This document shows, in pieces, positions 42,540 through 48,870 of a stretch of DNA of 64,000 bases. The stretch spans positions 640,001-704,000 of the forward strand of contig CAWCPV010000003.1 of NCBI GenBank assembly GCA_963797555.1, given 5' to 3'. The notes beneath the pieces were generated by a model. That model was given only the letters and a program-made list of their open reading frames with translations. It did no database searches and was not told the DNA's origin. The stretch's first letter is position 1, and the number at the start of each line of letters is the position of its first letter. A program made the position numbers and the translations under genes. This DNA comes from an uncultured Gammaproteobacteria bacterium. GTDB lineage: Bacteria > Pseudomonadota > Gammaproteobacteria > CAWCPV01.

Positions 42540-44547
42540 CCCGACTTCGCGGATTCGCGCGGCGATTGGCCCGCTGGCCAGGGGTAAGTGATTGTTTGTG
42601 GGGACCGTGGTGGGCCAAAAAGGGTCGAAATGCGCTGTAGTGAAGACCTTGCTTGTTTTCAAGGGGAAAAATCTGCGGATAATGATGTTCCATCATGTTT
42701 CTAAGGGCCACGACGCGGAAGAAAGACGGCAAGGAGCACCGTTACTGGAGTATTGTCGAGAATAGGCGCCTGAGCGGTGGGCGCGTGCTGCAACGGCATG
42801 TGCTGTATTTGGGTGAGATCAACTCCTCGCAGGAGTTGGCGTGGCGCAAATCCATTGAGGTGTTCGAAGACGGGGCGCTGACACCGCGCACGATGTCGTT
42901 GTTTCCCGAGGAGCGATCTGAAGAGCTGTCGAGGGATGCTTCGGTGGTACGTTTGCGGCTGAAAGAATTGCGGCTGTGCCGACCGCGGCAGTGGGGTGCG
43001 TGTTGGCTGGCGCTGCAACTGTGGGAGGAATTGCAGTTAGATCGCTTCTGGTGGGAACGGTTAACGCCGAGTCGCAAGGGCACTCGGTGGGATCAGGTGT
43101 TATTCGTGCTCGTGGCCTATCGGTTGCTGGCACCGGGCAGCGAGTGGCGGTTGCACCGGGAGTGGTTTGGCCGTACGGCCTTGGCGGATTTGCTCGGAGT
43201 GGATGCGGCGCTCTCCGACAGCCACCGGCTGTATGTCTGTCACGACCGCTTGCTGGAGCACAAGGCGGCGGTCTTTGACCATCTGGTGCGGCGGTGGCGG
43301 GATCTGTTCAATGCCACCTTCGAGGTGCTGCTCTACGACCTCACGAGCACCTACTTTGAGTGTGAGCCCCCGCAGTCGGAGCAGGACAAACGACGATTCG
43401 GCCACTCGCGCGATAAGCGCAGGGACTGTGTGCAGGTGGTGATCGCCTGGGTGGTGACCCCGGAAGGCTTGCCCTTGGCCTATGAAGTGTTGGCGGGCAA
43501 TACGGCCGACAAGACGACGTTGAAGGAGTTCCTCGCGCGCATTGAGCGTCAGTACGGAAGAGCGCAGCGGATTTGGGTGATGGACCGCGGCATTCCGACC
43601 GAAGCGGTGCTGGAAGAGATGCGCGCAAGTCGCCCGCCAGTGCACTGACCTGGTGGGCACGCCCAAGGGGCGGCTCAGCAAATTGGAGAGCGCGCTGCTG
43701 CTCAAGCCGTGGCGGGAAGCGCGCCCCGGCGTAGCCGTGAAACTGTTGGCGCAGGATGGGGAGCTGTATGTGTACGCGCAAAGTGAACAGCGCGTGGCGA
43801 AGGAGCGTGCGATACGACGGCGCAAGCTGAAGTGGCTGTGGGCGCGGTTGAAGAAACTCGCGACCATGCAACTCACCCGCGAGCAACTGCTGATGAAGCT
43901 CGGTGCGGCGCGCCAACACGGCCCGGCGGTATGGCGCTTGGTTCAACTGGAGGTCGACCCCAAGGACGCCACGTTTAGCTACCGCCTGCGCCGCGATAAG
44001 CTGCGTGAAGTGCGCCGGCGCGAAGGACGGTATCTGCTGCGCACCAATCTCACCGACACCGATCCCGCCAAGCTATGGGGGTTTTACCTGCAACTGGTGG
44101 CGGTGGAAGAAGCATTCAAGAATCTCAAGGGGGATTTGGCCATTCGGCCAATCTTTCATCAACACATCGAGCGTATCGAAGCCCATATCTTCATTGCCTT
44201 TCTTGCCTATTGTCTGCATGTCACGCTCGGGCGACGTTTGCATGCGCTCGCGCCTGGATTAACCACGCGCAGCGTGCTGGAGAAATTCGCCGCCGTGCAG
44301 ATGGTCGACGTACAGGTGCCGACCACCGATGGGCGCGAATTGACGTTCACCCGCTACACCCAACCTGAGCCAGAACTGCAACTGCTCCTCGCGCAGTTGA
44401 AGCTCGAACTGCCCGCACCACCAGCTCCGAAAATCAGCACCGCCCACACTGCCTCAGCCGCCGCGATGTAGTGCAGACCTTGCCAGGCGCCCTCTCGCAA
44501 TTTCAACCACTTACGCTATCCCTACCCCGCGAATCCGCGAAGTCGGG
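42540..44547 (+). mobile_element. IS1634-family IS (transposase 42695-44471, split at about 43645)
   Basis: IRs CCCGACTTCGCGGATTCGC and GCGAATCCGCGAAGTCGGG; CTAG on both flanks; YDLTSTYFE, MDRG and VEEAFK. Confidence 0.95.
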
Positions 44548-45607: not shown

Positions 45608-46125
45608 CCCGCCTTGCCTGCAGCTACGCCCATGTCGCGATGCCGACCGGATGCCGCTTTTGCGCGCGGTACAAAGAGTGGATCGGGCTGGGGTCTCGGC
45701 GCTGAGACACTAAGCCAGTTCAGCGCTTTGCATCGCGTTCACTCGAACCCGGCCACTGAGCCGATTCCCCCCCAGTGGATCTGGTTTGCGAACTCAACCG
45801 GACGGCCGTGCGGGCAGCCGACCTGGAATTGGCCGAGGGTGGGTCGACCGCCAGCGGCGACAACGGCGGGTCAGGCGCGTGGCACCCTCGACGCGCTACG
45901 CACCTGCCACAGGGGCTGCCGCTTGATGAGAAACAAGATGAGGGTCGGGTGGAGCAGGGTGCAGGCTGTATAGAGCCACAGAGGCAAGTACCCCAGAACA
46001 CGCCGCAGCGGTTCTGGCACTTCAAGCTCGTAGTCCGCCGGGCGCCGGCATACTCGGTCGCTCCAAACCGCGATGCGGAAGAAAGGACCTGCGAGTCTCC
46101 TCAGGGCCGGCCACGACAGAAGCCT

Positions 46126-46920
46126 CCGCCGTAGGGACGGCGGTCACCCGCCGCCCCCGGCACAGACCCGGACGTGCAGTTTTTCCGCATCCGGTTCCTC
46201 GGTTGTACTCGCTTCCGCGCAGACGGCCACTCGCCGTCTGTTGGCTATTGCCCGCAGTGAGGTTCGCTTGCGTTCTCCGGCCCGACTCTGTCCGGCGCAA
46301 GTTTCCTATACGGGCTGCGTACTTCCGCCAGGTCCTTCCCCTTGTAACGGGCTTTCCCCGTCTCCGAGTACTATGCCTGGTAAGACTCCCCACCAGCATA
46401 CGGCGGGCGTTCCCTTTGACAGTACTTCTCCGCCTGCCTGCTCCGAAGTTCCCTTCGTCCACTTAGGTTCCGGCTTAACCCTGTGTCCGGGTTTCCCCTT
46501 CCGTGCCTCAATAGCCGTATACCGTATGACCGAGCTTCCCTCCGGCCAGGAGCCGATGGGGCCTCCTGGGTTCTCCGACGCCTCTCTTCCTGCATGCCAC
46601 GGCCTGAGGACTCCGGCGGACCTCCACGCCCTCGCCAAAACGGGCGCTTCGTGTAGCCTTCGGGCACGTTAAAACCCTCGGCATCCGCAACAAGCTTATC
46701 TCGAAGCTGTACCAGCACTTCAGGGAGCGCGGCCTCCCCTACGGCCTACAGGATACTCTGCCTACGCTTAGCCCGTCTTGTTCGCAGCCTCTCGGCTACT
46801 CCGCCACGGACCCAAGGCTTCGATACGGGTGGGTGGCTAACCCTTATGAAGATGCCTTACGACCTCTTCTCCCGACAGGGACTCTCACCTGCAAGAAGCG
46901 CCGAGCTTTGCCCAGCGCGA
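46126..46920 (-). ncRNA. ORF-less group II intron (about 795 nt)
   Basis: D5 GAACCGGATGCGGAAAAACTGCACGTCCGGGTC (46165-46197); D6 with bulged A in CCCTACGGC; 5' TCGCGC followed by a GGTGAGAGTCC D1 motif; no RT ORF. Confidence 0.9.
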
Positions 46921-47355
46921 TAACGTCCTCCCGATACTTGCCGAGGCGTCTCAACATCCAGTGGAAAACCGCGTGGGGCAGGTAGTGGAGCAGCGGCACC
47001 TTATTGTGTACCTCCCACGGCCACAGGCGGTTTGGCGTGGCGAGGCAGGCGACCCCCGTGAGTTTCAGCACTCACGCCACCTCTCTTACGTGGGCCCGCG
47101 CATCGCCAACGTGCTCGATGACGTGGTTGGATACGACCACGTCGAAGATCCCGTCCGGAAACGGAAGGGCCTCCGCGCAGCGGACGAAGCCGTATCCCCC
47201 GGTGCAACTTCGCAGGTCCCGCACGTCCACGCTAACGACCTTGAACTCTTCTGCAAGCAAGGCCGCGATCTCCCCAATTCCGGTCCCGATATCGAGCAGG
47301 AGGCCCGAGGGTGTCGATAGGGCGCCAGATTCAGCCAGCACCCGGAGGATCTTAC

Positions 47356-48870
47356 GGCTCTTTCGGTAATTGTGTGGATCGTGGTGGTCGAGTAGCATCC
47401 GTTCTGAGCAATCGTCTATCACAACATCTTGTGGTTGGGCCTGTGGGGTTGTGGGCGAGAGGCCCGCGAGTGTGGGCAACCGGGAGGTTGTCCACACGGT
47501 CCTTGGGACGCGGGCCGCTCCGCAGGACTCGTCCACAAATCCACAGGCCATCAAGGGGGGAGCGCCATGGAGCCAACGCATCTATTCACGACGGCACTGG
47601 GCCTCACGGCGCCTTGGGAAGTCACCGGCGTACGCTTTGACCCCGAGGCTGGGCGCATCGACCTCGAGGTGGCCTTTGCCAAGGGGAGCCGCTTCGCCTG
47701 CCCGGCGTGCGGAGCGCCAGGCCAGCCGGTGCATGATACCCGCAAGCGCAGCTGGCAGCACCTGAGCTTCTTTAAGTCACGGGCAGACCTGCACGCGCAT
47801 CTGCCGCGAGTGCGCTGTGAGAGCTGCGGCAAGACGACTCAGGTCGAGCCGCCGTGGGCGCGCGCACAGAGTGGCTTCACGGCGCTGATGGAGGCACTGG
47901 TGGTGACGCTGTGCCAGGCGATGCCGGTGGCGACCGTCGCCCGGCACCTGGGCGTGGGCGATGAGCGCCTGTGGGGGGTGCTCGAGCACTACGTGGAGGC
48001 GGCCCGCGCCCAGGAGGACCACTCCCCGGTGCGCGCCGTGGGCCTGGACGAGACCGCCGCCCGGCGTGGGCAGCACTACATCAGCCTGTTCCATGACCTC
48101 ACGGGAAAACGCCTGCTGTTCGCCTGCGAGGGCCGCGACCAGAGCACCGTGGCGGCCTTTGCCGCCGACCTCCAGGCGCACGGGGGCGACCCGCAGGCCA
48201 TCGAGCAGGTGTGCATCGACCTGTCCGCCGCTTATCTCGCCGGGGTGACCAAGCATCTGCCTAAAGCCACGGTGAGCTTCGATGCCTTCCATGTCATCCA
48301 GCTCGCCAACCAGGCCGTCGATACAGTGCGCCGCGAGGAGGTCAAGACCGAGCCCGCCCTCAGGGGCACCCGCTGGACCTGGCTCAAAGACGCCCACGAC
48401 TGGACCTGGGAGCAGCTCACCGACTTTCACTGGCTCTCCCGCGCCCGCCTCAAGACCGCCCGCGCCTGGCGCCTCAAGGAGGCGCTGCGCGATATCTACG
48501 CCACGGCCAGCACCCTCGAGCAGGCCGAGACCGCGCTCACGCGCTGGTATAGCTGGGCACGGCGTAGCCGCCTGCAACCCATGAAGCACCTCGCTGCCAC
48601 TCTGAAAGACCACTGGGACGGTGTGCTCGCCGCGTTCGACTCCGGCCTCACCAACGGCCGCGCCGAGGGCATCAACTCCCTCATCCAGGCCGCCAAAGCC
48701 CGCGCCCGGGGCTACCGCACCACGCACTCGCTCATCACCATCGCCTACCTCATCGCGGGCAACCTGGCCCACTTGCCGGCCTCGCCGTTCAACACACGAT
48801 CTTGTGTCAGACCTCAGGCAGAGGCTGCCGCAGCGTAAGCATATCTACCCACACGATTCCGGTAAGAACC
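47356..48870 (+). mobile_element. ISL3-family IS (transposase about 47567-48838)
   Basis: IRs GGCTCTTTCGGTAATTGTGTGG and GGTTCTTACCGGAATCGTGTGG; 8-bp DR GATCTTAC; CPAC zinc finger, GLDET, FDAFH and TNGRAEGIN. Confidence 0.96.

Follow-up and report, generated by a model that had tools for sequence, protein, structure and literature searches.

An ORF-less group II intron with UCGCG...GGA ends in a methyltransferase pseudogene of an uncultured gammaproteobacterium, and the apparent preference of its relatives for integron attC sites

Mobile group II introns of the IIB-like bacterial classes (E, F and CL1) have six ribozyme domains, exon-binding sites EBS1 and EBS2 in domain 1, a two-base bulge in domain 5 and a bulged A in domain 6. 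In the Thermosynechococcus elongatus family, ORF-less group II introns spread by the reverse transcriptase (RT) of sister copies. Integron attC sites serve as insertion sites for group IIC-attC introns (S.ma.I2 type), which belong to class C, do without EBS2 and recognize the target via a stem-loop; in the excerpts of two studies that treat them, they enter the bottom strand of attC and run against cassette transcription (PMC7923331, PMC9229058). A 2015 review, in the part that deals with targets, lists attC for class C introns only (PMC4424553). The same two studies touch on introns of other classes in integrons in passing. In a Shewanella survey, two integrons are mentioned as having introns of CL1 and of class E (PMC9229058), and a soda-lake integron contains the IIB1/CL1 intron UHB.I2, which follows an attC in the cassette orientation, with class E fragments reported in a CALIN (Sonbol and Siam 2021, PMC7923331). 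In the passages on UHB.I2, its authors describe the flanking exons as not conserved, and tie neither the ends to tertiary contacts nor EBS1 to attC (PMC7923331). Our full-text search for UCGCG group II intron ends gave no relevant match, and we found no published link of changed ends to tertiary contacts or of EBS1 to the attC core, in a literature whose supplements (PMC7923331, PMC9229058) may show comparable insertion sites.

Here, we analyze a 64,000-nt stretch of DNA, the window, from a 20-contig draft assembly (G000, 84.6% complete) of an uncultured gammaproteobacterium. An ORF-less group II intron 796 nt long occupies 46920 to 46125 of the minus strand, within a methyltransferase gene that is broken (Table 1). 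Like the IIB-like introns, it has the six domains, both exon-binding sites, the domain 5 bulge and the domain 6 bulged A, and its relatives encode an RT/maturase without an endonuclease domain (TIGR04416). The ribozyme size also fits the 450-700 nt given, in the part of the source on ribozymes, for IIE and IIF introns, in which EBS1 is used in splice-site choice (PMC3753933). It departs from them in its UCGCG...GGA ends, its AAC triad and its missing ORF, and we make no class assignment; the RT encoded by the relatives matches PDB entries of several classes alike (1e-36 to 1e-41), and its NCBIfam match is to the general family only. UHB.I2, compared here by its published description, has the ends 5'-UUGCG..GU-3', sharing a first U and a penultimate G with the window intron, and its RT also lacks the endonuclease domain; unlike the window intron, it keeps its ORF, and its second and last nucleotides differ (PMC7923331, excerpts). 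Use of attC is shared with the IIC-attC introns, from which the lineage is set apart by EBS2/IBS2 candidates, by the cassette orientation, with two introns (L044, L004) on the strand of the cassette ORFs, and by insertion at the R' end, CGTTA/GG (the slash marks the insertion point). The arrangement of near-identical ORF-less copies beside ORF-bearing relatives, with the start of the ORF retained, recalls the T. elongatus family, from which it differs in that the ORF-bearing relatives are 81% identical and both broken, and in its non-canonical ends. We consider it highly probable that the element, ORF-less and non-autonomous, derives from a mobile group II intron of an odd-ended, attC-targeting lineage and lies here at an ectopic site.

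Table 1. Position of the intron, its structural elements and its exons in the window, all on the minus strand
Feature	Position	Strand	Evidence or remark
5' exon, upstream part of a class I SAM-dependent methyltransferase	46921..47362	-	Pfam, homologue alignment
Weak IBS2 candidate CAAGU	46936..46940	-	9 nt upstream of IBS1; by eye
IBS1 ACGUUA, last 6 nt of 5' exon	46921..46926	-	Complementary to EBS1
ORF-less group II intron, 5'-UCGCG...CGGA-3'	46125..46920	-	Copy boundaries, empty-site contig, homologous protein
Domain 1 core, RF02005 match	46601..46859	-	90.6 bits vs cut-off 49
EBS2 candidate AAGCUUG, domain 1 internal loop	46691..46697	-	Pairings read by eye
EBS1 UAACGU, domain 1 hairpin loop	46666..46671	-	Pairs with IBS1 ACGUUA, covaries in relatives
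Gamma nucleotide U in J2/3 (GUC-U-UACCA)	46383	-	Pairs with last nucleotide A46125
RT reading-frame remnant, about the first 37 codons, plus new hairpin	46220..46330	-	Alignment with ORF-bearing L006
Domain 5, AAC replacing AGC triad, AC bulge	46165..46197	-	RF00029 alignment; helix 93.1% paired, 5 compensatory pairs
Domain 6, GUGA loop, bulged A46132	46128..46161	-	Helix 97.7% paired, compensatory pairs 9/14
3' tail GGA after domain 6	46125-46127	-	
3' exon, methyltransferase C-terminal part	45871..46124	-	tblastn with P0001 residues 141-211, 95.8% identity

The boundaries are set by four lines of evidence that agree, namely the copies, an empty site, a homologous protein and covariation in relatives. 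A search for other copies, suggested by the earlier note, found three further full ones in the assembly (C4:743176-743971, C14:392959-393755 and C7:294062-294857; 100, 100 and 93% identity). The window copy and two of these differ by a single one-base indel only (reported as 100% and 99.9%), and all copies span TCGCGC to CGGCGGA, with unrelated flanks outside. The empty site is a metagenome DNA contig (run X2) that joins 46124 to 46921 and skips the 796 nt exactly, and P0001, a 95%-identical metagenome protein, reads through the junction as KYREDVRLLSWPALRRLAG. Removal of the 796 nt restores the methyltransferase frame as the earlier note had claimed, giving GAC GTT AGG CTT, which corresponds to ...KYREDVRLLSW... 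of P0001. That note had also left a 1-nt ambiguity at the ends, which is settled as a start at U46920 and an end at A46125 because the contacts of nucleotide 1 with the penultimate nucleotide and of gamma with the last nucleotide covary in relatives; moreover, the base preceding UCGCG varies (a, g or t) and is therefore exon, not intron.

The identity of the element as a group II intron is carried by a domain 1 match, a consensus fold of domains 1 to 3 and covariation in domains 5 and 6; the features named in the earlier note are all present, on the minus strand. Across the whole window, RF02005 (group-II-D1D4-6) gave the sole Rfam match at the gathering threshold (46859..46601, E = 4.5e-24, model positions 1-225 of 225), and permissive thresholds added only sub-threshold domain 5 matches and a chance miRNA match. 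The D5-D6 model RF00029 scored 29.8 bits, below its cut-off of 40, over 46199..46131, and its alignment stops at CUAC (46131), 6 nt short of the actual 3' end. When the two domains were drawn by hand on 36 sequences, 95.6% of the cells were paired and 14 of the 26 pairs showed compensatory changes; none of 500 shuffles did as well, and slid controls were 39-46% paired. The bulged A46132 is invariant in the 36 sequences and lies 7 positions ahead of the last nucleotide; the two-base bulge of domain 5 and a domain 6 bulged A 7-8 nt from the 3' end are both in place. Below this A is a lower helix of four pairs, which varies among CG, UA, AU and GC and is followed by the GGA tail. The catalytic triad is neither AGC nor CGC: the window copy and its close relatives have AAC, with the middle A opposite G, and distant relatives have AGC.

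The proposed check that domains 1 to 3 fold was borne out by an RNAalifold consensus of 26 relatives, which holds 106 pairs, 51 of them with compensatory changes, and includes a basal domain 1 helix and a long-range helix enclosing a large domain 2, the limits of domains 2 and 3 being only partly resolved by this fold. The set was held to 26 sequences because MAFFT and RNAalifold on all 41 distinct 5' segments were too gappy, and the other 15 lacked a domain 3 anchor or duplicated another row. Of 140 columns invariant in the other 25 sequences, the window copy deviates at three, two of which form one compensatory AU to GC pair; the third is a U to C change in J2/3 common to the window copy, L002 and L003. 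One G of the conserved GGGUGA motif is also missing in the window copy and L002, and the window copy could be impaired by this loss and by the J2/3 C. The GUGAG at 46888, tried as a 5' end and rejected, is the conserved GGGUGAGAGUCCC motif within domain 1. The ORF-less copies have a 22- to 24-nt insertion in domain 1 after CCCUGUCGGG (46846-46869, minus strand; also in L004), able to form a small extra hairpin and absent from every aligned ORF-bearing relative.

The window copy begins UCGCG and ends GA where GUGYG and AY are expected. The non-canonical ends read by the earlier note hold, since the four copies cease to match at TCGCG and GGCGGA and relatives align in the same columns. The relatives came from 64 loci in many phyla, fetched with the RT of L006, an ORF-bearing intron of the same assembly, and their 5' and 3' parts were located by nhmmer. 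Their ends form a series, GUGCG...GAY, GCGCG...GAC and UCGCG...GGA. Rows with GUGCG or GUGUG end in GAY (three in GUC), and those with GCGCG end in GAC (one AAC, one GAA); GGGCG goes with GAA and CCGCG with GGA, and rows with UCGCG end in GGA except for one AGA, two GAGA and one GGC. Counted over related sequences rather than independent events, the first and penultimate nucleotides are G-A in 19, U-G in 17, G-U in three and C-G in one of 40 rows. In 36 of 37 rows, the gamma nucleotide of J2/3, found in relatives in the context GUC-N-UAUCA, is the Watson-Crick partner of the last nucleotide (U-A 17, G-C 13, A-U 6; the exception, L072, has G-A), and the gamma-gamma' contact is present in the window copy as well. 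L017 keeps UCGCG and has a final C with a G at gamma, and L020 and L028 keep G1 and the penultimate A and have a final A with a U in J2/3; from these combinations, the two contacts vary separately. The odd ends are thus a property of the lineage and not damage.

Within 46125-46920, neither the ORF list nor the alignment to L006 revealed an RT-type ORF, and the lack of such an ORF together with near-identical copies at unrelated sites marks the intron as non-autonomous. In the ORF-less copies, a 21-nt hairpin (46240-46220) replaces the remainder of the ORF. The peptide TSLRAIAN (46263..46240), which had been read as a remnant of an intron-encoded protein, does align to TFLRAIAT in the RT of L006. 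Just upstream of the ORF, a covarying hairpin, ACGGG-GAAAG-CCCGU, is kept in the ORF-less copies and may be a putative binding site of the protein. As for the RT-encoding partner that the earlier note proposed to search for, the assembly has two RT-bearing relatives, L005 and L006 (81% identical; L006 84.8% over domains 1 to 3), both of them broken. L006 (C4:299460-301484) has a 407-codon RT/maturase frame (RVT_1 5.7e-31; TIGR04416 345 bits against a cut-off of 300) that is frameshifted in the maturase domain. In L005 (C5:219787-223400), another element with an RT of its own splits the RT frame after residue 279. The two are nested like a twintron; the RT of the inner element is a different one (35% identical), and the outer RT additionally has a frameshift in its downstream part. 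The 84.6%-complete assembly contains no intact cognate RT, its other RTs being at most 46% identical. Because both RT genes of the subfamily are broken, it is only by inference that we propose copying by an RT/maturase supplied in trans from a related intron.

Among 40 genomes of the same class, none holds a full-length ORF-less copy, and three, including the unpublished genome G039, have partial or related matches. A Psychromonas record (L074:587-1131) contains another ORF-less form of the family, independent of the first, 545 nt long and with the canonical ends GUGCG...GAU. The end of this form at 1131 lies about 0.85 kb upstream of another family 5' match (at about 1981), which is without an intron start.

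Exon recognition is explained largely by base pairing. The EBS/IBS pairing that was to be checked is clear for EBS1, which is complementary to the end of the 5' exon, fixes the 5' junction and covaries with IBS1 in six combinations, UAACGU/ACGUUA in the window and AAUGGC/GCCAUU, UAAUGU/ACAUUA, UAGCG/CGCUA, UAACGG/CCGUUA and UAACU/AGUUA in relatives. Read by eye, the EBS2 candidate complements AAGCU, AGCUU or GAGCUU 3-5 nt upstream of IBS1 at L002-L004, and across the other copies and relatives such partners lie 3-7 nt upstream (UGAGC with GCUCA in L018, UCAGCU with GGCUGA in L017). The candidate IBS2 of the window forms five pairs, one of them a wobble, with the GCUUG of EBS2 and is weaker than at the other copies.

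The same pairing bears on the target. The earlier note proposed a GTTA/G preference, and this is what the family shows: among 41 distinct insertion sites, the 5' side closes with GTTR at 32 and with CGTTR at 30. Both flanks are known for 39 sites, of which 20 go on with G and 12 carry the complete integron core GTTRRRY. Insertion at GTTA/GG falls 3 nt beyond what we take to be the G/TT crossover point of the integrase. We folded the 5' flanks as DNA while constraining GTT to pair with an AAC upstream of it, and compared them with 1161 other GTTR sites in the same loci, controls that may themselves include attC sites. The median folding energy was -13.9 kcal/mol for 27 relatives and -6.0 kcal/mol for the controls (Mann-Whitney p = 1e-4); 19 of the 27 flanks reached -10 kcal/mol or lower, compared with 332 of the 1161 controls, and eight lay above it. 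A TAAC partner was available in 13 of 27 relatives and 193 of 1161 controls. The relatives therefore mostly appear to occupy attC-like sites, at the R' core CGTTA/GG and in the cassette orientation, a statistical link.

Individual loci add to this picture. Downstream of the L044 intron, and on its strand, come an ORF, an attC, an ORF, an attC and an ORF; putative attC sequences repeat as a clear array in the relatives' loci at L044 only, and more weakly at L022 and L060. The 93% copy of this genome, L004, has an attC-like site on one side and the next ORF on the other, with further attC sites after that ORF, and is an older copy in a cassette array. The L003 junction is also attC-like (-18.0 kcal/mol), and attC features were found at L003, L004 and many relatives. 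Additional family 3' ends lie 1-1.3 kb upstream of full copies (L027:591-685 and L053:4-96) and fit several introns at neighboring sites of one array. The genome itself has a chromosomal integron (C7:43755-48500), with an integrase (C7:47556-48500; TIGR02249, 502 bits) beside four attC sites (C7:43755-46347) spaced about 700 nt apart with GCCTAAC and GTTAGG boxes; on the strand that reads GCCTAAC first, all four end in CGTTAGG followed by C or A. None of these four sites is occupied by the intron. By contrast with such sites, no likeness to attC is seen at four of the six insertion sites in the genome (the window site, L002, L005 and L006). At the window site, we found no imperfect hairpin of 55-140 nt with R'' ...TAAC and R' GTT..., and the target is coding sequence common to P0001. 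The idea that attC is the normal target is thus supported for the family, the window site being plain coding sequence and some other sites non-attC; the further idea that the intron entered a look-alike site within a gene agrees with the CGTTA/GG found there.

The interrupted gene is in poor condition. Its 5' exon matches Methyltransf_23 (6.4e-13) and Methyltransf_11 (7.2e-13), and it contains an in-frame TGA at 47072-47074 (minus strand); P0001 carries Arg at this position, and the X2 contig reads CGA there, with G at 47074. Methyltransferase homologues align from 47362 and only from their residue 21-25 on, the first approximately 20 codons of the homologues were not found at the locus, and an ISL3 transposase gene (DDE_Tnp_ISL3, 1.9e-72; 47567-48835, plus strand) adjoins the 5' end. 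Even if the intron is spliced out, the host gene remains a pseudogene: with the in-frame TGA, the missing start and the ISL3 neighbor, splicing would not restore function. Several mobile-element-like ORFs surround the intron, among them a 272-codon ORF at 43653-44471 (plus strand) without a Pfam match at E 0.001.

Could the unusual features of this locus have been misread? The intron might instead run canonically from GUGAG (46888) to CUAC (46131), leaving the extra 32 and 6 nt as repeated target, a reading prompted by the presence of the GUGAG and by the stop of the Rfam D5-D6 alignment at CUAC. We give this almost no credence, as every copy is alike out to TCGCG and GGCGGA and diverges only beyond, the empty-site contig skips 796 nt and not 758, a cut at 46888/46131 shifts the frame where P0001 fits removal of 796 nt, the GUGCG of relatives stands in the same columns as UCGCG, and domain 6 drawn to GGCGGA has its bulged A and a compensatory lower helix. 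Nor is it at all plausible that a full-length intron was collapsed during assembly and its ORF lost in that way, which the earlier note had named as a threat to its reading. Repeats do collapse easily, and this draft is in 20 contigs, but the four ORF-less copies lie on different contigs with unique flanks, and contigs from other assemblies cross the deletion point in two DNA runs and two RNA libraries (X1 record 2, X2 record 19, X6 record 23 and X10 record 7), X1 being possibly the source sample. From these contigs, the ORF-less form is no assembly artifact and is not restricted to this genome.

Two other alternatives deserve more weight, although we regard both as unlikely. The element may be a dead relic that neither splices nor moves any more and leaves the host transcript interrupted. 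Such a fate would agree with the one-base loss in GGGUGA and the U to C change in J2/3, with an assembly that offers no intact cognate RT, and with a host pseudogene in which nothing selects for splicing. On the other hand, three copies one indel apart in unrelated flanks speak for recent movement, the GGGUGA loss (L002) and the J2/3 C (L002, L003) are common to copies and so were themselves copied, and 137 of the 140 family-invariant columns are retained. The only exon-joined form that we saw is the contig from DNA run X2; the RNA contigs (X6, X10) lie on the intron only, with none on the exons and none joining them, and since they differ from the window and stem from related copies, they are uninformative on splicing. 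The second alternative, improbable to a similar degree, holds that the likeness to the integron core is incidental, the intron homing to any match to EBS1 and EBS2 with no special relation to attC. It draws on the full GTTRRRY at only 12 of 39 sites, the eight of 27 flanks that are not hairpin-like and the ordinary sequence at four of six sites in this genome. Against it stand the far commoner attC-like folding in the relatives' flanks than at control GTTR sites, the L044 and L004 introns, each flanked by an attC and the next cassette ORF and backed by further ORF-attC units, and the shared CGTTAGG[C/A] end of all four attC sites beside the genome's IntI.

The reading that we prefer, an ORF-less derivative of a mobile intron from an odd-ended, attC-targeting lineage, is as follows. 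A IIB-like ribozyme with EBS1 and EBS2 has lost its ORF, in a lineage that has exchanged the near-universal GUGYG...AY for UCGCG...GGA together with the contact partners: a U at nucleotide 1 faces a penultimate G, and a final A faces a gamma U. The DNA target would be recognized mainly by base pairing, of EBS1 with ACGUUA and of EBS2 with a few bases upstream, and the preferred CGTTA/GG is the R' core end of attC on the cassette-sense strand. The window copy would be a recent ectopic insertion, in the sense orientation, at a look-alike site in the methyltransferase gene. What the data show directly are the anatomy, the boundaries, the copies, the covariation and the target pattern; we infer that the element still splices, with A46132 branching onto U46920.

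The lineage keeps the other hallmarks of group II introns but reads UCGCG...GGA, and because GUGYG...AY is treated as the group II signature on which boundary-finding pipelines depend, these will miscall its ends, as Rfam D5-D6 did. The coordinated changes are natural evidence on which terminal nucleotides touch, and the lineage offers ready variants for asking whether U can take the branch. Taking the family as a whole, we lean modestly toward the view that a widespread lineage has rewritten nucleotide 1, the penultimate nucleotide and the last nucleotide with gamma, and homes to the R' core of attC, with the ORF-less offshoot as a parasite. If this is true, the rewritten positions would amount to a natural compensatory experiment on both contacts and on branching at a nucleotide other than G. 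The complementarity of EBS1 to the conserved CGTTA of the R' end provides a base-pairing account of attC targeting, and insertion in the sense orientation bears on the transcription and rearrangement of cassette arrays. Under the same view, the intron would move with the downstream cassette as its front section and could splice from cassette transcripts, and the ORF-less form, a non-autonomous parasite of this system, would also insert at look-alike sites of ordinary genes.
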